Below, one piece after another: positions 13,685-42,823 of a stretch of 64,000 nt of DNA. The notes under the pieces are model-generated. The model did no database searches and was not told where the DNA came from. It worked only from the letters and a program-made list of their open reading frames with translations. Made by a program: the position numbers and the translations under genes. Numbering within the stretch: position 1 is the first letter of the stretch; each line of letters starts with the position of its first letter. Source of the DNA: Cenarchaeum sp. (GTDB taxonomy: Archaea > Thermoproteota > Nitrososphaeria > Nitrososphaerales > Nitrosopumilaceae); contig OY843768.1 of the NCBI GenBank assembly GCA_963693095.2, positions 1,440,001 through 1,504,000 on the forward strand, written 5' to 3'.

Positions 13685-14253
13685 CACGTCGTGACGTTTC
13701 ACGCAAGCCCCCGCAATACCAGACAAAACCATCACACTTGCATGGCTCTTGTGGCATTCCATCGAGCCGGCAACTATTGACTAACGCAGCGCCTCGCACT
13801 CCAAATCTGCGTTAGTCCTGGCGCAGGACGTCAAGAACGCCATGGCAGTCTGTCTGTCTCTAGTCTTGCGCACATGCAAACTGCGCGCACGCGCTGCCGA
13901 GTCCACACCATGTGCAATGCCCCGCATGCGCGCCTTGAGCGGGCTCATCAGCACTACGGTGGGAGGCCCGCCCATTATAGGAGGACGCCATGGGGGCGGC
14001 CAAATCCGCACCTCCAATATGGGCACAGTAGGGGCACGACTGTCCTGATGCCCCCTCATGCCAGGGCACAGCAGGCAATGCCCACCGGCGCGCACTGCCC
14101 CCAGCGGCCACGGCGCGGCGCATGGAGCCATCAGCATGTCTGCGCCCCTCCATCACGACCCAGGTTGCGCCATGGGAGGAGGGACACGTGCCGAGCCATG
14201 GGCGTTTGCGCGCGTGTAACATTTTATAGCAGCGCAGCGGCGCGCCGGAGCGT

Positions 14254-14327
14254 GGGCCCGTAACTCAGCTTGGTAGAGTAACCGGCTCATAACCGGTGAG
14301 CCACGGGATCGAAGCCCATCGGGCCCA
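14254..14327 (+). tRNA. tRNA with CAT anticodon, probably tRNA-Ile2 (agmatidine type) rather than Met
   Basis: GGGCCCG/CGGGCCC acceptor with A discriminator (Ile-type GGGCCC start), ACCGG-ctCATaa-CCGGT; TATA TTTTATA at ~14222. Confidence 0.9.
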
Positions 14328-14337
14328 CCTTCGCTAG

Positions 14338-14345
14338 TTTTAAAG
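14338..14345 (+). promoter_or_regulatory. Putative TATA box for the box C/D sRNA
   Basis: TTTTAAAG 22-29 nt upstream of the sRNA terminal stem in GC-rich context. Confidence 0.55.
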
Positions 14346-14366
14346 CGAGTCTTGCGTGCGCGCGCA

Positions 14367-14436
14367 GTCGGCTGCGATGAGGAATCAGAGTTAACCTGAA
14401 CTGACTGATGAAAAGGCATTTGACCGAGCTGCCGAC
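14367..14436 (+). ncRNA. Box C/D methylation-guide sRNA (dual guide, 23S rRNA H69/H70-71)
   Basis: Terminal stem GTCGGCtGC/GCtGCCGAC; C ATGAGGA (14377), D' CTGA (14396), C' TGATGA (14406), D CCGA (14424); ~12-nt guides complementary to conserved LSU sequences UAACUCUGA and CAAAUGCCUU. Confidence 0.85.
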
Positions 14437-14438
14437 GA

Positions 14439-15041
14439 CTATGCGCGCGTGCGCGCGCGTATCTCGCCCATGACACCATCATCAATCCTGCCGCTCGAGT
14501 GGAGCGCATCGGCGAGCTCGAGTATGGTCGCGACGCTCCGGAGCTCGACGCCCTCGTTTCGCAGGGCGTCGCCGGCCCCCTCGAGGCGGTCAACGAGGAC
14601 GATTGCGCCGCTGACGCCGGCGCCGATCTCGCGAAGTGCGGCGACTGCGTGCAGGACAGAGCCTCCCGTCGTGGCGACATCATCAACAACTAGCACACGG
14701 TCGCCGGGTGACACAATGCCCTCGACGGCGCGCGAGGTTCCGTGGCCCTTTGCGGACTTGCGGACATAGGCTAGCGGCTTTGCGGACTCGATGGCCATGG
14801 CCGACGCAAAGACGAGGCCTCCGGTGGGGATGGAGGCAAGCGAGTCAAATGAGCCAAGGCCCCCGAGGGCCTCGATCTCCCCGAGGAGCGCGCCGACCAT
14901 GCGCCTGAACGCCACCGGCGAGGAGGGCACGGCACGCATGTCGACATAGTAGGGGCTCCTCTTGCCGCTAGAGAGCTCAAAGTCGCCAAACTTTAGCGCA
15001 CCGAGCCCATGGAGCGATTCGGCGAACTCTCTAGGCCTCAC
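14439..15041 (-). CDS. pyrE: Orotate phosphoribosyltransferase
   Basis: KFGDFELSSGKRSPYYVDMR, RK..KGHG, VVDDVATTGGS, VDRLEGA. Confidence 0.96.
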   Translation of the reverse strand: MRPREFAESLHGLGALKFGDFELSSGKRSPYYVDMRAVPSSPVAFRRMVGALLGEIEALGGLGSFDSLASIPTGGLVFASAMAIESAKPLAYVRKSAKGHGTSRAVEGIVSPGDRVLVVDDVATTGGSVLHAVAALREIGAGVSGAIVLVDRLEGAGDALRNEGVELRSVATILELADALHSSGRIDDGVMGEIRARTRA

Positions 15042-15095
15042 GCGTGGCCCCAAGCGCGACGGTTTTATTTTAGTTTGCGCGCGGGTCGGCCGTAG

Positions 15096-18107: not shown

Positions 18108-18572
18108 CTAGCTCCGGTACTGGAGCCTCTCGTTGTCGAGAATGCGGTCACAGTAGCGGCACTTTAGGACGCGGCCGTCCCTGTCGATGACGTCCATGAC
18201 TGACTCGATGGGCTCGCCGCTGTTGGTGACACAGTCTGGGTTTGTGCACATGAATATGCGCCCAATGGCATCAGGCAGTGAGGCTCGCCTCTTTTCGACT
18301 AGGCGGTACGAGCGCACTATATTGACAGTCGCCCTGGGGGCTATGACTGCGAGCTTGCTCGTGTCATCGTCCTTGAGGAGGACGCCCTCGACCTTTATGA
18401 TGTCCTTTTTGCCGTGCTTTGCGCTAGGCACGTTGAGCGCGACGGTGACCGTCTCGCCGTCCCTGCCGTCGATGCCCAGGGCCGAGACGACGCGCAGTCC
18501 CCTGCCGGCATCGATATGGTCGATCACGGTGCCCTCGCGGATGCGCCTCACGGTCAGCTCCGACTCGTCCAT
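18108..18572 (-). CDS. pyrI: Aspartate carbamoyltransferase regulatory subunit
   Basis: GTVIDHI, KKDIIKVEG, ATVNIV, CTNPDCVTN, CRYC. Confidence 0.97.
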   Translation of the reverse strand: MDESELTVRRIREGTVIDHIDAGRGLRVVSALGIDGRDGETVTVALNVPSAKHGKKDIIKVEGVLLKDDDTSKLAVIAPRATVNIVRSYRLVEKRRASLPDAIGRIFMCTNPDCVTNSGEPIESVMDVIDRDGRVLKCRYCDRILDNERLQYRS

Positions 18573-18611
18573 GGCAAGAGTTTGTATAAGTGCCCGTATA
18601 TATGGTGCGCC

Positions 18612-19538
18612 ATGAGCCTGCGCGGGAGCGACGTCATATCGGTCCGTGACCTGGGTCGTGACGGCCTCGAGAGCGTCTTTGCGGCAACTGACCGCATCAT
18701 GGAGATGCCCGAGGCGCAGCGCCGCCTCCTGTGCGCAGGCAAGTCGCTAGGATACCTCTTCTTTGAGCCGAGCACCAGGACGCGCCTGAGCTTTGAGGCC
18801 GCAATGGCATCTGTCGGCGGGACGTCATTGGGCATATCGGACTCGGCATCCTCGTCTGCGCAAAAGGGCGAGTCACTCGCCGACATGGTTCGCATAATGT
18901 CGATATACTCTGACGCCCTGGTCCTGCGCCACTCACTTGACGGCTCGAGCAGGTTTGCCGCCGAGGTCTCGGAGCGCCCAGTCATCAACGGCGGCAGCGG
19001 AACCGAGGAGCATCCCACGCAGGCGATACAGGACCTCTATACCATGCGCCGCGAGCGCGGCAGGATCGACGGACTCACCGTCGGCATCATCGGCGACCTA
19101 AAGTACGGCCGGACAGTCTACTCGCTCCTCCACGCGCTTGGCAACTATGACGTAAAGGTTCACCTAGTCTCCCCCGAGTCGCTGCGCATACGGTCAGACT
19201 CTGTATACGAGATACGCCAAAAGATGGATCTCGCCGAGTCGACTAGCCTCAATGACTGCATTGACGCACTAGACGTCGTGTACGTCACGCGCGTGCAGCG
19301 TGAGCGCTTTCCGGACAGTGAAGAGTACCAAAAGGTTCGCGGGAGCTATATCATTGGCACGGACATGCTCCAAAAGATGAAGAGCGAGGCTATCATCATG
19401 CACCCCCTCCCGCGCCTCGACGAGATAGCCACAGAGGTCGACTCGTCGCCGGCGGCGCGCTACTTTGAGCAGGCGCGCTATGGCATGCACACGCGCGCGG
19501 CCCTCCTCGCGCTGATTCTTGGCGACTGGAAGGCCTAG
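18612..19538 (+). CDS. pyrB: Aspartate carbamoyltransferase catalytic subunit
   Basis: FFEPSTRTRLSFE, KGESLAD, HPTQ, GDLKYGRTV, RVQRERF, HPLPR. Confidence 0.97.
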   Translation: MSLRGSDVISVRDLGRDGLESVFAATDRIMEMPEAQRRLLCAGKSLGYLFFEPSTRTRLSFEAAMASVGGTSLGISDSASSSAQKGESLADMVRIMSIYSDALVLRHSLDGSSRFAAEVSERPVINGGSGTEEHPTQAIQDLYTMRRERGRIDGLTVGIIGDLKYGRTVYSLLHALGNYDVKVHLVSPESLRIRSDSVYEIRQKMDLAESTSLNDCIDALDVVYVTRVQRERFPDSEEYQKVRGSYIIGTDMLQKMKSEAIIMHPLPRLDEIATEVDSSPAARYFEQARYGMHTRAALLALILGDWKA

Positions 19539-20037: not shown

Positions 20038-21486
20038 TTATTCTGTGATGGTAAATGAACGTGCCAATATTCTTGAATATGATATATAGTTAAGCAGATG
20101 AGGAAGATCATCAAAGAGATTTTTCCATAAGGGATTAGAAGGGTCAGCTTTTTGAAGGTTGTTAAAATGGTCAGATCTACGCAATATACCTTTGGTTGCT
20201 GGATCAAGCGAGTGTGTCGAACGAAGATCATTAATTTTTACCAGGTTAATCAGCTTGACAAGATCTGAAAAGAGATCAAAACGAAGATTATGTAAAGACA
20301 TATAGCTTAGTAATGCTGGTGGAATAATGTATACAAAGTCATCATGTTTATGCAATAGTGGGTTAAGTCCAGTAATCGATACGTCAAGACCATCTTGGTC
20401 AAATAGTTTGCTCCAAGACTCATCAAAAAATTCTTTATTTGATGATAAAATTGTAAATAGTTGCTGTTGTAAATCAGTAAGAGTGATTGATTCAATAAAT
20501 TTGAATGCATTCAGATTATTTAAATGAGTGTGAACAGCTATAGAGGTAAGAACTTTGAGATCAGAGAGCGAGGGTGTGCGCATAATTGAACCAAGTTTGC
20601 CAGCAATTACTAATAACGAATTTTTATTTTTAAATGCATGACGTCGAATAATAATACAATTGACGATATCGCCGGGTTCAAGCTCAGAAGCTAGTGGTTC
20701 AACAACAAATAAACGAGTGTTTAGAGAAGTGAATTTAGGAGGTTTAGAGAGAATTTTACCTTGAATTGCGCGATATTGAAACCGATCCTGTAAAAAATCA
20801 AATTGATGAACAGATGAATCAATTTTAACGATCTTTACTAGTGTTTTAAATACATCACATGTCTCAAGAAGTTCTGTGTAGCCATGATAAATAAAATTAT
20901 GGAAAGAATCATAGTCATTATTAATATCAGCAGCAGGCAATCGCCAATAAGAGTAAGTAAAACACTGATCAACTATTTTAGAATGAGTAATGTTTGGCCG
21001 TTCAATATTAGTAGCCCAATTTCTGAGAAGAAAATTCAAACTAGAAAATTGTGGCGGGATATTACGCTCAAATTTGAATCGTTCATACACATCAGAAACA
21101 AGAACACGCTGAGCAGAATTAGGAAAATATTCATGTATGCGTTTAGTTCCATGTAGATGCATCAATGTAAAATGGTTTAGATCTTGAACATATGTGGCAA
21201 GAAAAGCAGCTGGTGCGCGTGTATCAAAATAATGTATTTTACGACTAAGCAGGTTAAAAGATTGTGGAGAGAATAATGATAACGGTAATCTCAAGTTAAG
21301 CCGTATGCACGCATTATCTTTAACACTTTCAATACGCATATGTTCAATATCAGGAACTGAGCGAGAAGTAAGTTCTGCAATTCTTTGAGAAGAAACCAGA
21401 ATTAACTGTGTTAAAAATTTAGGATATGAAGGCTCAATAAGCTTTTCTAAAATTTGGATTTCTATATTTTCGCGAGATGGCATCAA
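20038..21486 (-). CDS. Uncharacterised 482-aa protein, last gene of the DISARM-like operon
   Basis: Long ORF in AT-rich DNA; its ATG overlaps the drmC stop (TGATG at 21485-21481); no family recognised. Confidence 0.8.
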   Translation of the reverse strand: MMPSRENIEIQILEKLIEPSYPKFLTQLILVSSQRIAELTSRSVPDIEHMRIESVKDNACIRLNLRLPLSLFSPQSFNLLSRKIHYFDTRAPAAFLATYVQDLNHFTLMHLHGTKRIHEYFPNSAQRVLVSDVYERFKFERNIPPQFSSLNFLLRNWATNIERPNITHSKIVDQCFTYSYWRLPAADINNDYDSFHNFIYHGYTELLETCDVFKTLVKIVKIDSSVHQFDFLQDRFQYRAIQGKILSKPPKFTSLNTRLFVVEPLASELEPGDIVNCIIIRRHAFKNKNSLLVIAGKLGSIMRTPSLSDLKVLTSIAVHTHLNNLNAFKFIESITLTDLQQQLFTILSSNKEFFDESWSKLFDQDGLDVSITGLNPLLHKHDDFVYIIPPALLSYMSLHNLRFDLFSDLVKLINLVKINDLRSTHSLDPATKGILRRSDHFNNLQKADPSNPLWKNLFDDLPHLLNYISYSRILARSFTITE

Positions 21487-21998
21487 AGATCATCTCCTTG
21501 TTTTATAGAACGCGCAAGCACATCCAACATATTAGCAATTTTGGAAACAGAATTTCCGTTAATTTTAAGCATAATTTCATAATTATAATTCATAGCATTT
21601 TTAGATATGTTAGGAGATCCTATCAACGCAAATTTTCTATCGATTACTATAATTTTAGCGTGAAGAGAACCATATTTGTGCTTTATTTGAAAGTTAAATA
21701 GATCAAAATTTGAAAATTTTTGAAAAGCAATCAATTTTTGTCTTGAAAAGTCTCCAATGGTTGATCCTTCCAAATCATTAACAATAAATTGAACATAACA
21801 ACCAGCATTAATTTGATCTTGAATAATATCAAAAAATGTTTTCATTTCAAAATTATCTCGGCCTAAAGAAAATGCCGAGATTTGTATGCTAGTCCGGGCT
21901 TGTTTTAGTGAATCAAAAACTGTGTCTACTATATTACTTGCTTCGTATCCTACCCATAATGCGCCAGATGCAGAAATTGAAGCAATCTCACGGGTCAA
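21483..21998 (-). CDS. drmC: Phospholipase D-family nuclease (DISARM DrmC-like)
   Basis: Single HKD motif LHAKIIVID followed by GSPN and NYE; directly downstream of DUF1998 gene. Confidence 0.85.
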   Translation of the reverse strand: MTREIASISASGALWVGYEASNIVDTVFDSLKQARTSIQISAFSLGRDNFEMKTFFDIIQDQINAGCYVQFIVNDLEGSTIGDFSRQKLIAFQKFSNFDLFNFQIKHKYGSLHAKIIVIDRKFALIGSPNISKNAMNYNYEIMLKINGNSVSKIANMLDVLARSIKQGDDL

Positions 21999-23944
21999 CG
22001 CTTAAGTGACTCCAAAAGAAGGTTACGATCTAAAAACTTGTTGTAAGAATCACATGATGTTTCAGAAACAAATAAGCAAGCATGACAAGCAGCACCATTA
22101 AACCGATTGTGGGTTTTCCGTCTATCAACACAAACAGGATCATTGGAACATATACGGATGTTATGATAAACATGGGATAGAATCTCTGAAAATGACGGAG
22201 CTAGGCTAATTAGACCCCCCAAGGTTCCGTCTCCCCCGGGCTGAGCTGTGTAAAGCAGAAGGCCAGATGTGTGTCGGCCAGACTCATCCTCATGACAATA
22301 AACACGCTCAGCAATACTTGCAGATGAAAATCCCGAACTGATTGCAAGCTGGTTAATGATTTTATGAGACAGCGCATGCCACCACACAAATCTAGGATTA
22401 GTTTTTCTTTTAGCTTCTAAACTTTTTTTAGACCAAGATTCATAGGTTGTGTTCCAAGCATCAAATGAGTCGTTTGAAGTATTTAGAACAGTGAGGGGGT
22501 CAAAGTTTATGTTTTTGTCAGAAGGGTCACATACTTGTATAAATAATCCTTCACCACGCAGTTGATGGCCAACAAACCACCTAGTATCATCTTCGTCATA
22601 GTAATTATAAATCAATTTACCCTGACGGTGGATGATTGGTATATTAGCATCATCCGAATCATCAAGTTCGTGTGTAACAACCTCACGCGAATATCCCAAT
22701 TGTACGCGGGTTAAATGTAATTGACGTATTGGAGAAATTCGGAAGTGGAGATTGAAATCCTCATGAAAGAAATCTATCGAATCAGTAGGTTCAATATGTA
22801 AACCAGTGAACGTACCATGTTTTTGGGGAGGAAAACCGTTTACGGTTGCATTAAGTAAATTGTTAAATTCATCATTAATCACGTTTTCAAAGTCAAATTC
22901 TGATTTATCAGATTGTTTTTTTGTCATATCTTCTGAAATTTTTGTAAGCGCATGTTTTATTTCATCCAATGTGGAAGTTTCAATAGCAGGTATAGGAAGA
23001 TTAGCATTGTATTTTTGATTAATTCGTTTACAATGATCAAGAAATTGCGTGTGTGTAAAATTAGGAGAGTTGTTGTGAAGAAATAGATCTAATGCCAATG
23101 GGTTTTCAGAGAGTATTCCAAGCTTACCAGGTACAGGAGGAATAGAAACGGCCAACATCAAGTCCACAACACGGATATTGCTAGAGTTTTTTAGTATAAG
23201 TTTAGAAGGTTCGCCACATGTTGAGATATTGTCTCTGGGAGGGTATTCTTGCATCACGCCAGAACATTGCAAAGTACCATTATCAGATTTTGACCGAAGT
23301 TCAAAGTACGAAACAGATTTATCACAATTTGTGCGCTGAAATGAACCATTTTCATAATAACCGTAACATCGAACAGTGAAATTATTATCACTATCAGATT
23401 CGTCCCATTCAAATACATCACCTAGGCATTCAAAGTGTCCACGATGAACCTCATATTTCCAATCAATGTCATCCAAATGACCGTTGTTACACGCCCTAAC
23501 AAATCGTACCGATGAACCTCTGTTTTTGTGACGTTTTGAAAGATTAGCATTGCTAGAACAGTTTGGACAGCGGATTTCAGCATGACCAGATATGTTTTGT
23601 AACTTAGACAATACAGGAGTTCCCGGATGGGCATTGCAAACAGACCAACGAGGAAATATGAAAGATCGAAACAAATATGTATTGTCGTCAGGGGTCAGAT
23701 CAGCGTTAGATGGCATTTGAAATATTTTAATAGCTTTTTTAGCAGGAAATTTTCTTTTTAGTATATTTTCCATATTAGAATCTTTAATGCAGAATGAATT
23801 TAATTGAAAATCAGGAAAACGACGAAAGTCGTCTATTATATTCAACAAAGACGGAATCACCACATAGCCACTTGCAATCGGAATCATCGATCCACTACCA
23901 TAGGTAGTAACATATTGTGATGGTCGTAATTGAACACTAGGCAT
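21995..23944 (-). CDS. drmB: DUF1998 helicase-associated protein (DISARM DrmB-like)
   Basis: LRPSQYVTTYGSGS, RFVRACNNGHLDD, GEGLF, HALSHKII, GTLGGL, CSNDPVC, ACHACLFVSETSC...LDR; ATG 23944 overlaps drmA stop by 8 nt. Confidence 0.9.
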   Translation of the reverse strand: MPSVQLRPSQYVTTYGSGSMIPIASGYVVIPSLLNIIDDFRRFPDFQLNSFCIKDSNMENILKRKFPAKKAIKIFQMPSNADLTPDDNTYLFRSFIFPRWSVCNAHPGTPVLSKLQNISGHAEIRCPNCSSNANLSKRHKNRGSSVRFVRACNNGHLDDIDWKYEVHRGHFECLGDVFEWDESDSDNNFTVRCYGYYENGSFQRTNCDKSVSYFELRSKSDNGTLQCSGVMQEYPPRDNISTCGEPSKLILKNSSNIRVVDLMLAVSIPPVPGKLGILSENPLALDLFLHNNSPNFTHTQFLDHCKRINQKYNANLPIPAIETSTLDEIKHALTKISEDMTKKQSDKSEFDFENVINDEFNNLLNATVNGFPPQKHGTFTGLHIEPTDSIDFFHEDFNLHFRISPIRQLHLTRVQLGYSREVVTHELDDSDDANIPIIHRQGKLIYNYYDEDDTRWFVGHQLRGEGLFIQVCDPSDKNINFDPLTVLNTSNDSFDAWNTTYESWSKKSLEAKRKTNPRFVWWHALSHKIINQLAISSGFSSASIAERVYCHEDESGRHTSGLLLYTAQPGGDGTLGGLISLAPSFSEILSHVYHNIRICSNDPVCVDRRKTHNRFNGAACHACLFVSETSCDSYNKFLDRNLLLESLKR

Positions 23945-26900
23945 CTGAAACAAACCCCCATTTTTCACCCATTGTGAATGTCGGCTCAACATCACGAAGT
24001 GAGTAATGCACATTTTTGTAAGCAGAAATTTTACCAGCCATTTGATGATGTTTTGTGCCGAGCACAACATGATTTTTTAGTTTAGCTCTAGTAGATTGAT
24101 TATAAATAAATTTATCGCCATAGTCTCTAGAAATCCGATTCGCACAACTGTTCCATATACAAATAGCGTCATTAAACAGCAGAGTAAACTCGTCAGAACT
24201 AACTGGCAAATCTGAATCAGGCGACAGATTGGAAAGAAGTGTTTTTGCAGAGTCAAATATTTGAGTTAGAGAAGTGCAAAGTGCAGTTATTTCATCATTT
24301 TTGTGATGTCCAATCATATAGTTAGGATTGTTTTGCCAATCAGCAGAAACAGGTTGTTGGGCAATGTGGCCAGCATTTCGTAGTATAGCCACAATTATTG
24401 GGCCAAGACATGTCTTTAACGCTTTTTCAGAAAATGGAGAGGCACTAATAGGTTCTACAAAACGGTTTATAGCTCTATGATACCCAACAAAATTTTCATA
24501 ATGACTAAGATCACGAACTCGTGTAGCACGCAGCCAAGTAATCACAAGTCCGGGATGTTTGCGTCCAATACGACCGGTTGATTGAATGTAGCTAGATGTG
24601 GATTTTGGCTGCCCCACAACAGTCATAAGTCCAAGTCTATCAATATCAATTCCTGTACCAAAAATAGAGGTAGTGAAAAGAGCATCAATTTTTCCAGGTT
24701 TTTCTAGATCTTCCATAGCTTTAGGGAGATCTAGAGATTTGACAGAGCTAGAAAGCTCAACAGCTTTTGTTTGATCTAAGTATCTATGAGAATAGTTTAA
24801 GCTGACCATTATAGATTCAGGAATTTTGCTTGTTTGTTCTACAGAACTAAAAACTATTTTATTATTTTTGATTTGAAATTTATTTGTGATGTGTGACTTT
24901 CGATCACTAGCACCACATTGAAAAGAGGTAGTTGATGAATAGTTGTGAATAGCAACCCACACGAGCGTTCCACGAGATGATGGAATTGGGGTTTCAAGCA
25001 ACAATTCATTTGCATTTTTATGACAACGCTTGACAAATTCATCTGTTGTGTTCGAAAGTAGTTTAGACGGAGTATCATCGATCGGATTATTGTCGTACAA
25101 GGCAACAGACATTTCGCCCGATTCGTTAGAGCAATAGATGGTAATGGAGACAAGGTCAGAGTCATGGGAAAGTAGAACAGGAATAAACCTCGTTCCCGGA
25201 TCGAATTGACTGTTGTCTAATCTGTGTGAGATTGAAAAGTCATTCTTTGAGCTCAATTTTTTAACATCACGTATAATATCAGAATTGTACAAATTGCGCG
25301 CAATGGCCAATTCACGAATTGCATTGAAGTATCCCACAAGTGTCCAATATGCATCAAGATTAGCAGGCATTGCCTGGGATTTTGGGGATTTATGAAGTCG
25401 GTAAATTGAACTAAGTAATGATGCATATATTCTCACCAACCCAAGTAGCATGCTTCTTGGGGCAAGTAGTCCAATATAAAGTCGTCCGGGAGTATCACAC
25501 GAACATGAAGGATCTTCGTCAATTTTGCTAAAATAATTATCGCCGTCACGTATACCCGGAGGCGGGAACACACGTGCAGTACGTCTGTAAACCACTGCAA
25601 CCTGACGTGAAGATTCTTTGATTGTAGCCGTAGATGCAATGTATTTAATTTTAGGAGTGCCCGGAGAAGAAAGTATATCAATAGCGATTTCGTAAAGGCC
25701 AACCATGCTTCCCAATGGGCCTTCAATAAGATGAAGCTCATCCTGTATAATTAATGACGGTGGATAAAAATTGGGCACAGGATCAGATAAACTATCGTCT
25801 TTGTACGTGCCAGCACGGTGAAATCCATCAAACATGTGATAAGTGTCAACATTGCCGAATATGGATGCTGCTTCGGGTTTAAATGCCAATTGGGCAAATT
25901 TGTCAGTAGTGGCAATTATAACTGTCGGGCAACGGCCATACACTTGTGGATCGATTGTAAAGGCCGAAATAGGAGTGCTAATCGACTTATTAGGATCATT
26001 TTGTGAAACAAACGGCTTGGCTATGAGCGTTTGACCACGAGGCATAGTTTTTTCAAACCAAGGGATCTCCCACGTTAAGCAATCGGGGTTTGGGCAGTGT
26101 ATAGAAAAATCAAATCGCTTATTAGAATTATTCTCATACAAAAAGAAATAGCCCGGTCGTGATGCACGAGTGCATTGGAGCGGAACACTGTATTTTGTAA
26201 GCTTAAGTGCCCGCATTATATCATCACGCCACCATTTATCTATATTGTCAGAAGAGAGATGGTTAGTACGAAAATGTACACGTAGAGCACAATAGGTACC
26301 GTGTTCATTAGTGTGAATACGAGAAAGAGATTTTGCTGGTGAGCCATCTTTTTTGCATATAATGTGCCCATTACCACAAAATTTTGAATTGTCTATTGAA
26401 TCGAATTCTTCAGACACCATATTGGTTTCTACAATCCAGGTAATAGTAAAAATTTCACGGTTTGTAATTTCTTTGTCAGAAATTGCCAATAATGATCCAC
26501 AACAAGGACACTTTGTAATTTGGGCAGGTTCGCCGCTATTCCCTCGACTAGTTCCAGGAGGAAGCGGAGATAGGGCGCCTTCAGCATTAAGGAAAGATCC
26601 AACTTGTTCAAACCGGTTAGGAGTTATATCACCGATCCACAATCCTAACGAAAAACGGTTTTGACCCCAGAGATTTTTTCGTGAATCTCTTTCGATCAAA
26701 TCTGGATCAGTAAATTCAACATTTCGAGGCAGCCAATGCTTGACTCTCAACATATCAGAGGCGAGGATTAATCCCAACGTCCTACTAAATTGCTGAATTG
26801 TCAAAAGTCGGAGAGTGTATCGAGATATGATAGAAACACCGCCATCTGTTTGAAAGTCTTTGTACGTAACAAGTCGGCGATAGGCAAAAGTAAACGCCAT

Positions 26901-28361
26901 AAGTCCAAGATACGCCTCTGTCTTTCCACCACCGGTTGGGAACCATAGAATGTCACAAAAATCTTTATCTTGTTTATTGTCTGGAATGAGACCCGGCAAT
27001 GTTTGTAAGATAAATGCTATTTGAAATGTATGCCAAGAAAAGTGTGCGTCATTATCGTTGCTATCCCATTGGTGTTTCATATGCATAGCCTCGTTCATAA
27101 AGCAAAATGCCAATCGTGCTTTTTCGTTACACAATAATAAATCAATCCCTTTTTGGATACGATCTGCACACTGATAACATTGTTCAATATTTTCATCAAG
27201 TAAATCATTTTTGGTAGAATAAGTTTCTTGTTGATCAGATATCCATTGTTTGTATTCTGTGACAATTGGTGTGAATGTAGAAGAGATAGAATTAACATCC
27301 CACAAGTCAGCAAGGCGATCTGCATTAAATCTGTCAGAATTACCTCGAATTTCAGGTTGGCGAACAACATACATTGGTAAATATTCGGTACGTATGTCAG
27401 AATTTTGAAATTTTTGAAGAACATCATCTGGCATTATTGATGATTGTGCATCAGGCCACATCATGGAGCAAAAATCTTGATTCGCGGAATCAGAAGCAGG
27501 ATCTATATCTTTCCACATAACCCCACACAGATGTCCACGACCTTTATTGGCCTTGTTTTGATATAAATAATCATTGTTTGTTTTATCGGCAAATGGTGTT
27601 CCAAGATCTTCAACGGATGAGTCAGAGCCGCATATAACGCGAATTTGTGGTTGAAAAATCGACAATACATTGTTTTGTCTTTTGTTGGGTTTGGTTCCAG
27701 AATATGGCGATTCGTTAACAAGAAATATAGATACATGCCATTTATTATTTTCAACGTAACGTGTATAGACATAAAGCTTTGCATCATTGCTTCCAATATT
27801 ATGAATAAATGAATTTGAAGGCAACAGAGGGGTAGCGATTTTAGAAACATCGATCAGGTCAGAAACCATCAGACTAGGGTGACGTTTGTATGTTCCCGGA
27901 GCATGGACTAGCTCGTATTTGCCCCACGTGCAACATATCTGAATTAGTGGCGGGGCACCTGCAACGACAAATGATAGACCCATTGAGTATGCACCCTGCA
28001 TTAGGTTAAGGTCAGAATCAACACTAATTTTATAGTCTGTTTCATCTGATTCAAAGTCGGAATCTCCATGATGTAAATTGTCGGGAAAATTTGCCTTTTC
28101 GTATGGATCGGGAGGGATGTTAAAATCAGGTTTGTCAGAAGAACGAAGACGGGGGTTAAGAATTCCCATGGTGTATTGAACTGATGGATTTTCGATTACC
28201 TCATCAGGTCCACATCTAGGTCCAAGCATATCTTCAAAAAGTGATTTGACCATATAGGTACGAGCTAAACCTGAGAATAGACTCTCTGTAGATGTAAAAT
28301 TAGAATTATTAGTTTCAGAATTTGAATGGTTGTCTGTATGCTCAGTGGTAGGTTGTGTCAA
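23937..28361 (-). CDS. drmA: SF2 helicase (DISARM DrmA-like), 1474 aa
   Basis: SMGLSF, FQPQI, FQIAFIL, WFPTGGGKTEAYLG, RYTLRLLTIQQFSR, TTDKFA, IQDELH, ASTAT, YFNAIREL, GIDIDRLGLM, YIQSTGRIGR, RDLSHYENF, SLRDVE. Confidence 0.92.
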   Translation of the reverse strand: MTQPTTEHTDNHSNSETNNSNFTSTESLFSGLARTYMVKSLFEDMLGPRCGPDEVIENPSVQYTMGILNPRLRSSDKPDFNIPPDPYEKANFPDNLHHGDSDFESDETDYKISVDSDLNLMQGAYSMGLSFVVAGAPPLIQICCTWGKYELVHAPGTYKRHPSLMVSDLIDVSKIATPLLPSNSFIHNIGSNDAKLYVYTRYVENNKWHVSIFLVNESPYSGTKPNKRQNNVLSIFQPQIRVICGSDSSVEDLGTPFADKTNNDYLYQNKANKGRGHLCGVMWKDIDPASDSANQDFCSMMWPDAQSSIMPDDVLQKFQNSDIRTEYLPMYVVRQPEIRGNSDRFNADRLADLWDVNSISSTFTPIVTEYKQWISDQQETYSTKNDLLDENIEQCYQCADRIQKGIDLLLCNEKARLAFCFMNEAMHMKHQWDSNDNDAHFSWHTFQIAFILQTLPGLIPDNKQDKDFCDILWFPTGGGKTEAYLGLMAFTFAYRRLVTYKDFQTDGGVSIISRYTLRLLTIQQFSRTLGLILASDMLRVKHWLPRNVEFTDPDLIERDSRKNLWGQNRFSLGLWIGDITPNRFEQVGSFLNAEGALSPLPPGTSRGNSGEPAQITKCPCCGSLLAISDKEITNREIFTITWIVETNMVSEEFDSIDNSKFCGNGHIICKKDGSPAKSLSRIHTNEHGTYCALRVHFRTNHLSSDNIDKWWRDDIMRALKLTKYSVPLQCTRASRPGYFFLYENNSNKRFDFSIHCPNPDCLTWEIPWFEKTMPRGQTLIAKPFVSQNDPNKSISTPISAFTIDPQVYGRCPTVIIATTDKFAQLAFKPEAASIFGNVDTYHMFDGFHRAGTYKDDSLSDPVPNFYPPSLIIQDELHLIEGPLGSMVGLYEIAIDILSSPGTPKIKYIASTATIKESSRQVAVVYRRTARVFPPPGIRDGDNYFSKIDEDPSCSCDTPGRLYIGLLAPRSMLLGLVRIYASLLSSIYRLHKSPKSQAMPANLDAYWTLVGYFNAIRELAIARNLYNSDIIRDVKKLSSKNDFSISHRLDNSQFDPGTRFIPVLLSHDSDLVSITIYCSNESGEMSVALYDNNPIDDTPSKLLSNTTDEFVKRCHKNANELLLETPIPSSRGTLVWVAIHNYSSTTSFQCGASDRKSHITNKFQIKNNKIVFSSVEQTSKIPESIMVSLNYSHRYLDQTKAVELSSSVKSLDLPKAMEDLEKPGKIDALFTTSIFGTGIDIDRLGLMTVVGQPKSTSSYIQSTGRIGRKHPGLVITWLRATRVRDLSHYENFVGYHRAINRFVEPISASPFSEKALKTCLGPIIVAILRNAGHIAQQPVSADWQNNPNYMIGHHKNDEITALCTSLTQIFDSAKTLLSNLSPDSDLPVSSDEFTLLFNDAICIWNSCANRISRDYGDKFIYNQSTRAKLKNHVVLGTKHHQMAGKISAYKNVHYSLRDVEPTFTMGEKWGFVSDA

Positions 28362-28413
28362 TGTAGAACGTTACCTCTGGACAAAATGAACTTAATCAAC
28401 ATGGACAATTTGT

Positions 28414-29436
28414 TTACCTCGTAGACTGTGCGCGTAGGGTTTTTCTGCGCGGGTGGCGAACAATCATTCGATGGGCAGTTATATGAGGCACCATATGTTT
28501 GGCTATTTCAGAGACTATTGGAGGAACCACCGCATTGCCTAATTGTCGGTATGCGTGAGAATCGGAGACGTGTAGCTTGAAGTTTTTGGGAAAACCCATG
28601 AGTAGAGCGCATTCTTTTGGTGTAAGTCGGCGCGGGTTTTTCCGTGATCCCTGGTAGACGAGGATTTCAGCCCCATCCTTGTAGTAGCGGGCACTCAGAG
28701 TTCTTGATGCACCGTCAAGGTCAGCCAAGCCATATCCAAACCCATTTCCTTTTTTTCGGTTTCTTTCTGCATGACGTTTCAGCGCAGACCACACGCCGTC
28801 AGTTAGCGTGTATTTTGCATCCGGTGAGCTGTCCAAGATTTTTTTGAGTTTGGGGCCTGATCCGGAAAATTGCGGAAATGCAAAGTTTGTGGGCTCGGCA
28901 AACCCAACCAAGAAAAGGCGCTCCCTGTGCTGGGGAACTGCGGATCGGGCATCAATTACCTCATGGCGTATATCATAACCGAGTTTTTTCAGCTCTTTTT
29001 CGATGATCATGAGCGTTCGACCCCCATCATGTGAACGGAGATTTTTGACATTCTCCAAGAGAAATGCCCGTGGACGTTTGGCTCGGAGTATACGGACGAT
29101 CTCAAAGAACAGGTCTCCCTGTGACGAGTCAGCAAACCCGTCAGGCCTGTTCATACTTCGCTTTTTGGACACGCCGGCCAGAGAGAACGGCTGGCAGGGA
29201 AAGCCCGCCACGAGCACATCATGATCGGGTATTTCAGAGGGCCGGATTTGGCGAATGTCCCCAGATGGAACATCCCCAAAATTAGACTCATAGGTGTTGC
29301 GGGAGTGCTCGTTCAGCTCGGAGGAAAAGACACACCGCCCACCGGCCTTTTCGAATGCCATACGCATTCCCCCAATTCCGGCAAATAGATCGATGAACGT
29401 GAATTTAGATCGCTGTCTGGTAGGCAATTCTGTCAA
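28414..29436 (-). CDS. drmMII: C5-cytosine DNA methyltransferase, Dcm/M.EcoRII-like (DISARM DrmMII-like; CCWGG predicted)
   Basis: FIDLFAGIGG, GFPCQPFSLAGVSKK, ENVKNL, QHRER, KYTLT, GNGFGYG, RTLSARYYKDGAEIL, QLGNAV. Confidence 0.9.
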   Translation of the reverse strand: MTELPTRQRSKFTFIDLFAGIGGMRMAFEKAGGRCVFSSELNEHSRNTYESNFGDVPSGDIRQIRPSEIPDHDVLVAGFPCQPFSLAGVSKKRSMNRPDGFADSSQGDLFFEIVRILRAKRPRAFLLENVKNLRSHDGGRTLMIIEKELKKLGYDIRHEVIDARSAVPQHRERLFLVGFAEPTNFAFPQFSGSGPKLKKILDSSPDAKYTLTDGVWSALKRHAERNRKKGNGFGYGLADLDGASRTLSARYYKDGAEILVYQGSRKNPRRLTPKECALLMGFPKNFKLHVSDSHAYRQLGNAVVPPIVSEIAKHMVPHITAHRMIVRHPRRKTLRAQSTR

Positions 29437-29457
29437 GGCGCCGTACGGTATACTACG

Positions 29458-29463
29458 TTATAA
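29458..29463 (-). promoter_or_regulatory. Putative TATA box of the defence operon
   Basis: TTATAA 22-27 nt upstream of the MTase TTG start, typical leaderless archaeal spacing. Confidence 0.5.
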
Positions 29464-29480
29464 GGATAATGGACAACTGC

Positions 29481-29647
29481 ACAGGCGTGCGAGAACAGGC
29501 GTGCGAGAACAGGCGTGCGAGAACAGGCGTGCGAGAACAGGCGTGCGAGAACAGGCGTGCGAGAACAGGCGTGCGAGAACAGGCGTGCGAGAACAGGCGT
29601 GCGAGAACAGGCGTGCGAGAACAGGCGTGCGAGAACAGGCGTGCGAG
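29481..29647. repeat. Perfect tandem repeat (ACAGGCGTGCGAGA) x ~12
   Basis: Read directly: 14-bp unit over 167 bp, last copy lacks its final A; no spacers. Confidence 0.97.
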
Positions 29648-29692
29648 GCCAATACTGTGAATCAAATGCCAGTGTTCCATCCTGATCGCAGC

Positions 29693-32600
29693 CTAGCTTT
29701 CCGCATCACGCGTGGCCGGCGTGTAGACGACGGTCGGCGTACTAGCCGTGCCTCCAAAGTCACCGTGCGTGAGTGCAAACCCCATGTCACCCGAGAGGCG
29801 CAGTGTGCGCACAAACTCGCCTGACGCGTCATCTGCAACCCCCACGGCCGCCTCGCCGTTGACAATCCACTCAGCTGCCACAATGTCCCCGATCACAGGC
29901 TCGTCGAGGGTCACCGTTGTGACAGTCGCCGATGTCGTGTGCGCCGATGCGATCGTCGGAGGCCTAGTGTCGATCTCTATTGCTCCAGAGGCACCCTGGA
30001 CCGCAGTCGCCGTCACACCCGTCGAGCCGTCAATCGCCGTGACCTCAAAGGTGAGCAGGCCAGAAACTGCGTCGCCTGCCACCGTGTGCACGTGCGTCCA
30101 GGTCTGCCGATAGTCCCCCGGCGCGTCGACCATGGTGAGCGCAGGACCGCCGAGGATGGAGACTGTTGGGTCTGCGCTGATGCCGGCCGGCTCGTTGAGC
30201 GTTGCAGTGATGACAATGTCATGGCCGATGCCGGCCGTGCGCGCGCCCAGGCCGCTCCGCTGCACCTTTGGCGTCTGCACGCTGTCGTCATCGTCCTCCA
30301 CCACAATGGCCGAGACGGCAACGGTGAGCGCAGTCGTATCGGTGCCGGCCGGAATTGTTCCAGAGACTGCAGTCGACATGCGCGGCAGGTATGCCTGGCA
30401 CACCGGATCTATTGTGTCGCTGTGCAGGCATGTGCGCTCTGTCTCAAAGTTTGGCGTGGCGACCGGAAGGTATCGCACTGTCGGAGCAACGTCTGCCGGC
30501 TGGGCCGAGGTGTCCGGAAGTGTGAGGGACATGCTTATGCCGTCGGCAGAGAGTTTATGGGACGCAAACTCTAGGTGGCGCGCGACGTCACCGGCCGCAC
30601 CAGGAAACGTCGCAGGCGTCAGGTCTATTATCCAGCTCGATGGCGTGGACTCGGCAAATCCTAGCAGCCGTTCTGTGAACGTGACTGTCATCGTTGTCGG
30701 TGACGTGAGCGCCGCCGTGAATGCCGGAACGAGATTCGTGCCAAACCGGAACGGAATATTCACAAGCTGCGGGTTGTCAGCCGGTGTCAGGTCACCGGCA
30801 ATATGCCTCTTTAGCGTCGTGGGGATGGTGACTGTGTGCGACGGAGCCGATGGTCTTGTCGCATCGAGCTGAATCGAGACGTACGATCCGTCGGCCTCGG
30901 CGGCGCTGACGGTTCCGTCAAACGCAGCTCCTATGGCGGCGTCGGACGGCAGCGCACCTCGTTCAGGCATCACGCGCAGCGTCCCCCACGGACCGTCCGT
31001 GCGCGAGGCCGGATGCGGCGGATCGGCAAGCGTCCGGCGATCAGGGGCGTTGCCCGGAAAGTAGACTAGCACGCGCGAGGCGTCTGGTGAGGCATCAGAC
31101 GGGATGATGCGCAGTGACACGGACTCTTGCGAGCCGGCAAACGCAGAGCCGTCTGAGCCCATTATCGTCGGCGGCAGGCGGACAGAGTATGCGACGTCGC
31201 CCCTGGCCTCGTACGTGCTGCCACGCTCATCGACGAGCGAGACGACTAGCGTTCGCGGGCCGTCAGGCGCGACCCTGTTGGATATGGGAAGCGGCGGGAT
31301 CGGCAGGCATTGGGGCTGGAGGCTGCCCTGTGCAGAGCACGCTGGATCCTCGGGCATGTCCGGCGGCGCCTCGCCCCGCACGACGTCAAGCGAAGAGGGC
31401 ACCGAGGAGTGGTCGATATCGGCGCCAAAGAGGACGCGAATCTCGCCATATGCGGCAAACTCGGCACTCACCACGCGAGGCGGGCCGGCGACTGCCACAG
31501 TCACCGGCGAGGCCAGCGCGTTTGCGGGCTGCGCGGTGTCCACTATGGAGAGCCGTCGTGTCGTGTCAGCCGGCGCGTACATTATCGACACCCCCTCGCC
31601 GAGCGTCGCGTGATCGGTGGCAGTCGCACCTAGCGTGACTGTGCGTCGCGCAAGGTCCACCATAACTGATGACGGCACGATTCCCTCGGGGCTCGACCCG
31701 GAGACGAGGCGCCAGTCATCTGCAATGGGAGCCGACTTTGTCGGCGCGAGCATGACGGCTTCGCTGAACGTGACCACATAGGATGGCGCAGACTCGTCAA
31801 ACGGGTCAGCACGGTGCGCCGTAAACTCTGGGGGCGCGCCGTCTGTGGCCAGCGTGTCAAAGACACGAAGCGGCAGGTGGCCGTCTCGTGACAGGCTGTC
31901 AGAGACATCAGAGTATATCACGCGCGGCTGCTGGCCGGTCGAGTCTAGCGCGCTGTGCGTTATGGTCATCGTCGTGACCGGCGAGCCCTGTGGTATCGTG
32001 TGCGCAGAGCCCGCAGTGACCATCGACGTCCCGACATATATGGCATCAATTGCACCATCGACAATGCTGTCATCGTCATGGTCCATGGACCAGTCACCAA
32101 TCTCGATCGTTCCGGACACTGCAGGAGTGAACGTGACGACTGTCATAGTCGCCGTCGCAGTCCGTGCGCTAAACGGGATCGTGTACGTGGCCTGGTGCGT
32201 GAGCGCCTCTCCCAGCGTGTTGGGCGTTGGGGACGCCGCGTCGCGCACGCCAGTCGAGAACGTCAGCGTCGGCGAGCCCTCCCTGCGCTGCGGCACGACG
32301 TATGCCACAAGCTCGCGACCCTCGGACTTTACGCCGGTGATCATGTACGGCGCCGAGATGGCGACCCAGTCCAGTGACGCGCTGCCCAGCGGCTCGCTGA
32401 ACGTGGCGGTGACCTGGAGGCCATACGCGTCAAACCCGTGGGACACCAGGGTAGGCGGCGCGCCATCACGGGCCATCACGGGCAGAGCGCCAGTCGAGCC
32501 CACGCGCAGCGTGCCGTCCTGCCCGCCGCTCAGGCCGCCAGAGGCAGGGGCGGTGTACGAAACCTCGGGCGTCGAGGCAGTCGAGCCAAGCTCGCCATGG

Positions 32601-33577
32601 AATATCATGAGCGTCGAGCGCGCCGACTGGCCGGGGATGGCAAGGGATTCAGAGCCTGCCGTGCCGACTCCCGTGACGGCAATGTCTGGCGCCGACGAGC
32701 CGCGCTCGCCAATGCCCCATTCGCCAGGCTCGGTGGTTCCCGAGACCGGCCTGTCAAACGTGATTACAGTCGATGTCCTCGTCGACGTCTCTGCCGTGAA
32801 GGCGATCGACGCGGTGTATGACGCCGAGACGGTCTGCGCGGCCGGCGCGTTGCCGGCCCTGTCCCTGATCTTGGATGGCAGCCTTATCGTGTGCTCTACG
32901 CCCTGGGCTGCATCAGAGGCTAGCGTGAGCGTGATCCTTGACTGACCCAGCTGGACGACGTGCGGTGCCGAGCCGTCAAGCTCCACGTCATCTGTGCCCA
33001 CAGTGACGCCGTACTCGTAGCGATAGACGCGCTGGGAGAACTGCAGGGCCTCATCAAAGGCGAGCACGATCGTGTCAGCCGCCGTGAACTGTGCAGTTGC
33101 GGTGGGTCGCGTGACGTCGATGGTTGGCAGGAGGAGGCCGACGTTCTCTGGAAGGTTCTGCGCAGGCGTGATGGTCATCCCCTGCTCGCCGGGCAGCGTT
33201 ATCGTGAACGTGAACGCCGAGCCTGCAGTTGGCATCAGACTCCCGGCTACGACATAGTCATGGTACCATGTCGAGTCGTTGCCATCACGATCGTACATCG
33301 TCGCATCCGTGACGCCGGTGATCTCGCCTCCGGCGATCGTTATCGTCGGTGGCGAGTCGATTCCCGCATCAAGCCTAAGATACGTGCGGATTGTGTCGCC
33401 AATGCCAGCGTATGACTTGTAGTCGCCGATCTTTTCGAGGCCCACTCGCGGCGGAACTGGATCAAGAACCGAGAACGTCAGCGATATCGTACTCGGCTCG
33501 GCGTGCGCACCACCATGCGCAAGGGTGGCGAGGAGCGCGGCGGCCATGACGCACACAACTGTCATGCTGCCGTTCAT
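29693..33577 (-). CDS. Large secreted/surface protein with repeated Ig-like beta-sandwich modules, possibly C-terminally truncated
   Basis: Signal peptide ending AHGGAHA; ~5 copies of FTA-x-T..VTF...V-G....W module; 2 copies of AGIG-x-I...PT-I-GG...TW-H-V-G; Thr/Ser/Pro-rich; start approximate. Confidence 0.8.
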   Translation of the reverse strand: MNGSMTVVCVMAAALLATLAHGGAHAEPSTISLTFSVLDPVPPRVGLEKIGDYKSYAGIGDTIRTYLRLDAGIDSPPTITIAGGEITGVTDATMYDRDGNDSTWYHDYVVAGSLMPTAGSAFTFTITLPGEQGMTITPAQNLPENVGLLLPTIDVTRPTATAQFTAADTIVLAFDEALQFSQRVYRYEYGVTVGTDDVELDGSAPHVVQLGQSRITLTLASDAAQGVEHTIRLPSKIRDRAGNAPAAQTVSASYTASIAFTAETSTRTSTVITFDRPVSGTTEPGEWGIGERGSSAPDIAVTGVGTAGSESLAIPGQSARSTLMIFHGELGSTASTPEVSYTAPASGGLSGGQDGTLRVGSTGALPVMARDGAPPTLVSHGFDAYGLQVTATFSEPLGSASLDWVAISAPYMITGVKSEGRELVAYVVPQRREGSPTLTFSTGVRDAASPTPNTLGEALTHQATYTIPFSARTATATMTVVTFTPAVSGTIEIGDWSMDHDDDSIVDGAIDAIYVGTSMVTAGSAHTIPQGSPVTTMTITHSALDSTGQQPRVIYSDVSDSLSRDGHLPLRVFDTLATDGAPPEFTAHRADPFDESAPSYVVTFSEAVMLAPTKSAPIADDWRLVSGSSPEGIVPSSVMVDLARRTVTLGATATDHATLGEGVSIMYAPADTTRRLSIVDTAQPANALASPVTVAVAGPPRVVSAEFAAYGEIRVLFGADIDHSSVPSSLDVVRGEAPPDMPEDPACSAQGSLQPQCLPIPPLPISNRVAPDGPRTLVVSLVDERGSTYEARGDVAYSVRLPPTIMGSDGSAFAGSQESVSLRIIPSDASPDASRVLVYFPGNAPDRRTLADPPHPASRTDGPWGTLRVMPERGALPSDAAIGAAFDGTVSAAEADGSYVSIQLDATRPSAPSHTVTIPTTLKRHIAGDLTPADNPQLVNIPFRFGTNLVPAFTAALTSPTTMTVTFTERLLGFAESTPSSWIIDLTPATFPGAAGDVARHLEFASHKLSADGISMSLTLPDTSAQPADVAPTVRYLPVATPNFETERTCLHSDTIDPVCQAYLPRMSTAVSGTIPAGTDTTALTVAVSAIVVEDDDDSVQTPKVQRSGLGARTAGIGHDIVITATLNEPAGISADPTVSILGGPALTMVDAPGDYRQTWTHVHTVAGDAVSGLLTFEVTAIDGSTGVTATAVQGASGAIEIDTRPPTIASAHTTSATVTTVTLDEPVIGDIVAAEWIVNGEAAVGVADDASGEFVRTLRLSGDMGFALTHGDFGGTASTPTVVYTPATRDAES

Positions 33578-33641
33578 CGTGACGCAATAGTCCTTTCGCA
33601 CTTTTTAGTGTAATTGCGCCGTGCGCACGTCGACGTCACGG

Positions 33642-42479: not shown

Positions 42480-42668
42480 CTACTTTAGCGCGCGAGCCTT
42501 CTTTTTGACCGCGGTGAGCTCCTCGCGAAGGTGCCTCTTTAGGAGACGCTCGTGCGCCTTTTTGTGGGCGCGGAACGCCTTCATCAGGGTCCTGCTGGAG
42601 CCAGCCCGCTTGGCCGCCGCATTGTACCGCTTGTGTATCGCGGCGACCTGGCCAGTGTAGGTTGCCAT
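42480..42668 (-). CDS. Small basic helical hypothetical protein (62 aa)
   Basis: K/R/H-rich ORF with ATG, host codon usage and upstream AT-rich promoter-like tract. Confidence 0.65.
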   Translation of the reverse strand: MATYTGQVAAIHKRYNAAAKRAGSSRTLMKAFRAHKKAHERLLKRHLREELTAVKKKARALK

Positions 42669-42823
42669 GGATCGCGTGTGGTGTCATTTCGGATAAAAAT
42701 GCAGAATTGACCAAAATCGGCTCTGGGCAAATTAAAGCTGACTTGATTGGTGCGGACGTTCGCGTCGACTGTGGCCGCTGGCAGCACGACACACCAATAT
42801 GCCCACGTGCGCAGGGCCGTCGC

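Follow-up and report, generated by a model that had tools for sequence, protein, structure and literature searches.

Positions 14367-14436 of the window (the whole 64-kb stretch of DNA analysed here) very probably hold an archaeal two-guide box C/D sRNA gene, independently transcribed, from a Cenarchaeum-like thaumarchaeon. It encodes a real but ordinary archaeal double-guide C/D sRNA, kept in many ammonia-oxidising archaea and their relatives, and its family, of a well-known kind, is newly delimited here. The sequence allows a terminal stem, a C'/D' k-loop and a C/D k-turn in which tandem G.A pairs are followed by two G-C pairs; 38 other archaeal genomes, with differing gene neighbourhoods, retain this architecture with compensatory base changes. 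The sRNA is predicted, as the most likely reading of its guides, to direct methylation of two nearby large-subunit rRNA adenosines. Box C/D sRNAs are routinely missed by genome annotation, and no C/D sRNA catalogue for Thaumarchaeota was found in the literature searched. The gene offers a testable predicted pair of rRNA modifications in the helix 69 subunit-interface region of ecologically important archaea, and the family alignment (A1) and covariance model (R1) described below can be used for annotating it. The understanding of how C/D sRNAs work is left unchanged.

Anatomy of the sRNA gene

The gene, its parts and its two immediate neighbours are distributed as follows.

14338..14345, + strand: TATA-like element TTTTAAAG; its centre lies about 26 nt before the stem begins
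14367..14436, + strand: entire sRNA gene of 70 nt, terminal stem included; its ends are those of the match to the leave-out model R1
14367..14375, + strand: 5' arm of the terminal stem, GTCGGCTGC, pairing with 14428-14436
14377..14383, + strand: box C, AUGAGGA (ATGAGGA in DNA); consensus RUGAUGA, position 5 being G
14384..14395, + strand: D' guide ATCAGAGTTAAC, 12 nt; predicted target the helix 69 loop, A1913 equivalent
14396..14399, + strand: box D', CUGA (CTGA), from the sequence and from the pairing of D' position 1 with C' position 6 in the family
14400..14404, + strand: k-loop spacer ACTGA, 5 nt, from the sequence
14405..14411, + strand: box C', CUGAUGA (CTGATGA), from the sequence
14412..14423, + strand: D guide AAAGGCATTTGA, 12 nt; predicted methylated nucleotide the A1938 equivalent
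14424..14427, + strand: box D, CCGA; consensus CUGA, position 2 being C
14428..14436, + strand: 3' arm of the terminal stem, GCTGCCGAC, from pairing, covariation and RNAalifold
14254..14329, + strand: tRNA with CAU anticodon (ARAGORN, Rfam), a neighbour 37 nt upstream and not part of the RNA
14439..15053, - strand: pyrE (NCBIfam TIGR00336, 130.2 bits against a cut-off of 106.8; Pfam PRTase), a convergent neighbour and not part of the RNA

The terminal stem comprises 9 bp with a single T.T mismatch at the third pair counted from the boxes, a mismatch common to the window and its two closest relatives (L034 and L036). A single G at 14376 stays unpaired between the 5' arm and box C. Boxes C and D each deviate by one base from their consensus (RUGAUGA and CUGA), and the two deviant bases, G at position 5 of box C and C at position 2 of box D, lie opposite each other in the k-turn, where they may form a G-C pair. 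Tandem G.A pairs are possible between G14379-A14380 and G14426-A14427, and the Watson-Crick pair of the k-turn is present, G14382 (box C position 6) facing C14424 (box D position 1). The U.U pair expected at box C position 5 and box D position 2, with at least one uridine, is replaced here by G with C. A strict k-turn test demanding a uridine would fail because of this replacement; such a uridine is the requirement of one prediction program and not of the RNP, and its loss marks a box variant, by which membership of the sRNA class is not excluded. The internal C'/D' k-loop has CUGAUGA and CUGA with 5 nt between them. Spacers of 12 and 12 nt and a total length of 70 nt compare with the expected spacers of 10-12 nt and total of about 50-70 nt; these expectations, as well as the box consensus, are those given in the accessible part of Breuer et al. 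2021.

An alternative box C, GCGAUGA at 14374-14380, would leave a 15-nt spacer and was rejected, as the family alignment fixes the box at 14377-14383, with a 12-nt spacer, in every member. The preliminary description of this DNA had proposed a TATA box, a 9-bp stem with one mismatch, the C/D'/C'/D spacing and both guides, and this anatomy is recovered base for base.

By analogy with the family mechanism, L7Ae would bind the k-turn and the k-loop, Nop5 and fibrillarin would assemble on the RNA, and each guide would pair with nascent 23S rRNA; the target nucleotide that faces the fifth guide base upstream of D' or D would then be methylated by fibrillarin on its 2'-OH. This mechanism (L7Ae, Nop5, fibrillarin and the N+5 rule) is the one set out in the accessible part of Breuer et al. 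2021. Because the two guide targets lie in a single short segment of the subunit interface, the RNA would probably also hold this region open or together during folding. Within the 64-kb window, taken as such and not as the genome, no L7Ae, Nop5 or fibrillarin gene was found.

Conservation, covariation and chance

A genome collection was scanned with a pattern made of the two 8-nt guide cores, the GA of D', the TGANGA of C' and a variable loop, for which about 0.3 matches are expected by chance with a uniform base composition. Such an exact-pattern scan yields a minimum count of carriers, not absences. It returned 38 loci, all archaeal and none bacterial: 31 are titled Nitrososphaerota or Thaumarchaeota (Nitrososphaera, Nitrosopolaris, Nitrosopumilales, Nitrosothermus, Cenarchaeum, Terraquivivens and Caldarchaeum), six are titled Thermoproteota or Crenarchaeota, one of these being Infirmifilum (Thermofilaceae), and one is titled 'uncultured archaeon'. 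Neither Nitrososphaera viennensis nor Nitrosopumilus maritimus is among the matches of this exact pattern. The window has no exact self-match in the scanned collection. Its nearest record, L036, is a Cenarchaeum sp. chromosome to which it is 91% identical in DNA over 2.3 kb and 91-98% in the neighbouring proteins, and the next nearest, L034 ('Thaumarchaeota archaeon S13'), displays 76% DNA identity. These two records indicate that the window comes from a Cenarchaeum-like thaumarchaeon; the preliminary description had already supposed a thaumarchaeal origin, and the 91% identity to the Cenarchaeum sp. chromosome bears it out. RadA and other archaeal genes nearby, together with a G+C content of 58.8%, fit an archaeon.

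The window and the 38 loci make a family set of 39 sequences, 33 of them distinct. Several features that the search pattern does not force are found in all 39: the TGA of box C (positions 2-4) is invariant, it stands 5 nt before the D'-guide core (box C positions 5-7 and two guide bases), the GA of box D falls at positions 4-5 after the D-guide core, and a stem starts beside boxes C and D. Both spacers measure 12 nt in 39/39, half of each spacing being fixed by the pattern and the other half free. The invariance of the guide cores among the matches is imposed by the search and has no evidential value. Outside the cores, position 10 of the D guide (counted from box D) is an A complementary to the target in 38 of the 39 sequences, and position 11 is A except in the Terraquivivens-type copies, whose G could still form a G.U pair; both positions are unforced. 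Position 2 of the D' guide is A in the window and C in most Nitrosopumilales-type copies.

The loop between D' and C' is the sole length-variable part of the RNA, ranging from 2 to 18 nt across the 39 sequences. It is enlarged to 16-18 nt in five Nitrosopolaris-type loci (L011, L020, L022, L030 and L038), and in L013 the start of box C' is duplicated in tandem within it, as an 8-nt unit (CTATGAAG CTATGAAG).

Covariation was assessed on alignment A1 for 13 proposed pairs of the stem and k-turn. Paired combinations fill 80.2% of the cells, as compared to 29-53% for slid controls, a compensating two-sided change occurs in 12 of the 13 pairs, and column shuffles matched the observed covariation in 0 of 500 cases on any of five measures. 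Among the 33 distinct sequences, box C position 6 and box D position 1 are always paired (G-C in 28, A-U in three, U-A in two), as are D' position 1 and C' position 6 (C-G in 29, U-G in four), the C' side of the latter pair being fixed by the search pattern. Box C position 5 and box D position 2 are more diverse: A-U in 11, G-C in five, G-U in three and other combinations in 14. Stem pair 3 alternates between A-U and G-C, and stem pair 4 between C-G and U-A. RNAalifold, run without an input structure, predicts the inner 6-bp stem with compensatory changes in 6/6 pairs. To note, columns 15/72 and 31/56 of the same alignment point to a preference for Watson-Crick pairs.

Covariance model R1 was built from 36 relatives, leaving out the window, L034 and L036. 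Applied to the window, it matches exactly 14367-14436 over its full length with 65.7 bits (E 4.5e-16), while the runner-up scores 12.8 bits. Conservation, covariation and the leave-out covariance model thus uphold the claim, made in the preliminary description, of a real gene.

A decaying relic, in which the family is real and the copy of this genome non-functional, is very unlikely. The T.T mismatch in the stem and the non-consensus boxes C and D are what such decay might leave, but the same combination of AUGAGGA with CCGA is also found in five distinct sequences of several lineages, and the deviant bases pair together. Besides, the promoter, boxes and guides are identical in the relatives at 91% and 76% DNA identity, in which the spacer and the outer stem change, and the model score of 65.7 bits is high.

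Short boxes may also arise by chance, and the hairpin might serve as a terminator for the tRNA or for pyrE. The fold of the single sequence is in line with such a reading: compared to shuffles its z is -2.05, and six of 200 shuffles fold equally well. This weak signal is expected of an RNA whose sole regular helix is the terminal stem. A consensus regex tolerating at most two box mismatches has one match on both strands of the 64-kb window, at this site; over 100 first-order Markov simulations it gave any match in two and a match with a stem in none. A looser, family-style regex likewise finds this site only in the window, against one match in 40 simulations. Simulations thus almost never yield such a match, and the same element stands in 38 genomes beside unrelated genes, with covariation. 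The chance or terminator reading, whose probability is close to nil, is refuted as far as sequence analysis reaches. Neither the regexes nor the covariance model detected further C/D sRNAs in the window beyond 14367-14436.

At gathering thresholds Rfam gives no match over the gene, and no curated Rfam family covers the sRNA. A permissive scan of 14230-14500 returned 10 sub-threshold matches over the element, every one to a C/D-box family. The best is sR17 (RF01144), with 27.2 bits against a threshold of 36; sR14 (19.1 against 38), sR49 (19.6 against 50) and others are also below gathering, all these families being built from Pyrococcus-type sRNAs. The Rfam C/D models align end to end over 14373-14429 and resemble the sRNA in box arrangement and length, but the similarity is confined to the boxes and the guides differ.

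Predicted rRNA targets and known guide RNAs

The cores of both guides have precedents in the RNA-seq-derived sRNA lists of Dennis et al. 2015 (Additional file 1). The D guides of Sulfolobus acidocaldarius sR113 (Sac-sR113) and Ignicoccus hospitalis sR91 (Iho-sR91) contain the core TCAGAGTTA followed by 2 nt and CTGA, as does the D' guide here, and this identical register implies the same predicted nucleotide in the helix 69 loop. In these two RNAs the guide adjoins box D, whereas it adjoins D' here. The partner guide of sR91 has its label in the next alignment block and that of sR113 is unrelated; with such differing partners, sR113 and sR91 are not the same RNA as whole molecules. The D-guide core is found, again in the same register, in Sac-sR125, Iho-sR109 and Pca-sR40 (Pyrobaculum calidifontis), as AGGCATTTG plus 1 nt and then a D or D' box. 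The partner guides of these three aim at other nearby positions, and in Pca-sR40 it is the D' guide that is shared, with a degenerate D' box after it. As judged from the sequences, then, each guide has precedents, and the pair that sits on separate RNAs in the seven surveyed species sits on a single RNA here.

The 23S alignment printed in Additional file 3 of Dennis et al. 2015 reads, in the portion available, GUAACUCUGAC ... GGUAGC CAAAUGCCUUG for four species: P. calidifontis, T. tenax, S. acidocaldarius and I. hospitalis. These are the LSU sequences that the preliminary description had given. In the same portion, the helix 69 block bears the labels S113 and I91, and the next block, which begins CAAAUGCC, bears S125, P40 and I109 at its start. 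Escherichia coli numbering was taken from a real rrlH (U1911 A1912 A1913 C1914; A1936 A1937 A1938 U1939), and guide-target pairing was counted by hand against the printed crenarchaeal 23S. On that printed sequence, positions 3-11 of the D' guide pair with 1911-1919 over 9 bp, placing A1913 at N+5, and positions 2-11 of the D guide pair with 1935-1944 over 10 bp, placing A1938 at N+5. In both inferred duplexes the N+5 position is a Watson-Crick U-A pair. Lengths of 9 and 10 bp reach the nine-base-pair criterion given in the accessible text of Dennis et al. 2015, the D' duplex being exactly at the threshold.

With a 23S of the crenarchaeal type, the predicted sites are therefore A1913, which is the second A in the loop of helix 69, and A1938, the third A in a run 25 nt downstream. 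The preliminary description had named the same two adenosines, about 25 nt apart, and the N+5 count on the printed crenarchaeal 23S with rrlH numbering arrives at this prediction too. If the targets hold, the organism's own 23S is predicted to read UAACUCUGA in the helix 69 loop and CCAAAUGCCUU in the downstream run, or else to differ in ways that the lineage-specific ends of the guides would match. The sequences examined include no Nitrososphaerota 23S, so the assignment rests on crenarchaeal sequences and guide retention: the window and all fetched loci contain no archaeal 23S, a search of paper full texts for the target motifs gave 15 matches, unrelated or eukaryotic and none in a thaumarchaeal 23S, and one supplement of Lui et al. 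2018 has 0 occurrences of either guide core. In M. maripaludis, M. kandleri, N. equitans and E. coli, the accessible alignment of Dennis et al. 2015 shows departures at one site or at both. The longest exact guide complements in E. coli 23S measure 6 and 8 nt, both elsewhere in the molecule. Target complementarity thus depends on lineage.

It is unlikely that this genuine C/D sRNA acts mainly as a folding chaperone, or that only one of its guides methylates. Dennis et al. 2015, in the text available, argue that double guides aimed within 100 nt aid local rRNA folding and report that 16 of 262 double guides have one unmethylatable site; the D' duplex, moreover, has just 9 bp with rRNA of the crenarchaeal type. 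Opposed to this are the two N+5 pairs, both Watson-Crick U-A in the inferred duplexes, and the canonical k-motifs and 12-nt spacers, both kept in 39/39 sequences.

That the sRNA is genuine but aimed at other RNAs, such as the neighbouring tRNA or mRNAs, is highly improbable. About one third of catalogued archaeal sRNAs lack an rRNA target, according to the accessible text of Dennis et al. 2015, and the 5' part of the adjacent tRNA contains GTAACTC, with 6 contiguous bases common to the D' guide complement. This match falls far short of 9 bp, however, and linkage to the tRNA is found in just two of the 38 loci, whereas the guides are kept everywhere. The 9-mer TCAAATGCC of the D guide complement occurs at four other places in the window, but a count of four over 128 kb is close to random expectation, and outside the gene there is no match of at least 10 nt. 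Both guides, furthermore, equal guides already assigned to 23S.

Functional counterparts exist in yeast, where the 2'-O-methyl adenosines 25S Am2256 and Am2280/Am2281 are guided by the box C/D snoRNAs snR63 and snR13, respectively; these are two separate snoRNAs, whereas one RNA has both guides here. The yeast positions equal 1913 and 1938 plus a constant 343, an equivalence by offset alone and not by sequence. The helix 69 pseudouridines of E. coli lie at 1915 and 1917. The same offset of 343 relates 1915/1917 to pseudouridines 2258/2260 in a review table of yeast modifications. That table also lists snR63 and snR13, in agreement with the statement, in the preliminary description, that Am2256 and Am2281 depend on separate snoRNAs. 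Helices 68-71, at the subunit interface, are known to be a hotspot of methylation.

According to the literature, the exact sites of methylation in archaea are 'generally not conserved' from one genus to another, and no site is common to all seven surveyed species. Thermophiles carry far more C/D guides than mesophiles (Breuer et al. 2021, accessible part). Here, a single RNA with a fixed guide pair is present in no fewer than 38 species-level genomes; their lineages come from the sea, soil, sponges and hot springs, and many are mesophilic. Since sites are rarely conserved and mesophiles are guide-poor, the presence of this pair in many mostly mesophilic lineages is a mildly notable exception. 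A tentative reading, more doubtful than not, is that of one orthologous dual-guide sRNA, whose guide pair would have been kept since the ancestor of the ammonia-oxidising Thaumarchaeota and the Caldarchaeales/Terraquivivens ('Aigarchaeota'), reaching some Thermoproteota, and whose sites would be the adenosines of yeast snR63 and snR13. If this orthology were true, the sRNA would join the small number of archaeal methylation guides that are conserved across a phylum; the modifications would predate the archaeal-eukaryotic split, as perhaps would the guides themselves, the two guides having later been distributed to separate RNAs.

Promoter, gene neighbourhood and defence genes

The sRNA gene lies within a 109-nt gap between tRNA(CAU) and the stop codon of pyrE, which is reached 3 nt beyond the sRNA stem. 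Its TATA-like element TTTTAAAG recurs unchanged in the two closest relatives, where the sequence that follows has diverged; similarly, TAGTTTTAAAGCGAG is identical in the window, L036 and L034 and the bases following it differ. Over 38 distinct upstream sequences, A+T peaks at 0.85-0.87 in the interval -40..-31 from box C, as compared to 0.33-0.65 elsewhere, and an A/T-rich heptamer at promoter distance is present in 37 of them. The TATA-like element stands out sharply in G+C-rich loci. These observations bear on the claim that the gene has its own TATA box, which is sustained by the presence of TTTTAAAG and by the A+T peak at a fixed distance in the relatives. A promoter of this kind is reported for only about 20% of archaeal C/D sRNA genes, which places the family in the independently transcribed minority. 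L018 (Ca. Terraquivivens tikiterensis) is the only copy devoid of an A/T-rich element at the usual promoter distance, and it may be transcribed from an upstream gene.

A synteny search between the tRNA and pyrE had been proposed. The order tRNA-sRNA-pyrE is retained in the two closest relatives, L034 and L036, and not in the other 36 of the 38 loci, which have no pyrE within 2 kb and in none of which tRNA(CAU) is found at that distance. The neighbourhood thus varies while the RNA and its promoter are kept, indicating that the conserved unit is the RNA with its promoter and not the locus. In four loci titled 'Thermoproteota/Crenarchaeota archaeon' (L017, L021, L023 and L026), a same-strand tRNA-Gly(GCC) lies about 45-60 nt after the sRNA match, which suggests a possible sRNA-tRNA co-transcript in this lineage.

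The tRNA at 14254-14329 is called Met by ARAGORN and Ile2 in the preliminary description. A TATA-like TTTTATA of its own precedes it by about 25 nt, and the tRNA is 100% identical in L036 and L034. Alternating-GC tracts at 14354-14366 and 14442-14458 flank the sRNA gene; they comprise a perfect direct repeat of 12 nt, GCGTGCGCGCGC, as well as inverted repeats 9-13 nt long, the downstream copy falling in the 3' end of pyrE. The GC-alternating inverted repeat was considered as a precursor stem and set aside: its upstream arm is located between the TATA-like element and the predicted start, and this arm is not kept in L034. The pyrimidine genes of the window (pyrK-like at 481-1377, pyrE at 14439-15053 and pyrB at 18414-19538) are scattered over 19 kb and form no operon.

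Farther downstream, a DISARM-like anti-phage island occupies 20038-33601 on the minus strand of the window, with three recognisable components.

21483-21998, - strand: DrmC-like PLD nuclease of the DISARM-like island
23937-28361, - strand: DrmA helicase (NCBIfam 1074.8 bits; PADLOC 1098.8)
28414-29436, - strand: DrmMII cytosine methylase of the DISARM-like island

Two large ORFs of the island, 20038-21486 and 29693-33601, have no match in NCBIfam or PADLOC and may be the missing DrmB and DrmE-type parts. Two other genes of the window, near the island, may also serve in defence: the one at 42662-45325 (+ strand) encodes a DEAH-box helicase with BrxH/DruE-like matches, and the one at 48186-48977 (+ strand) a TatD/QatD-like nuclease.
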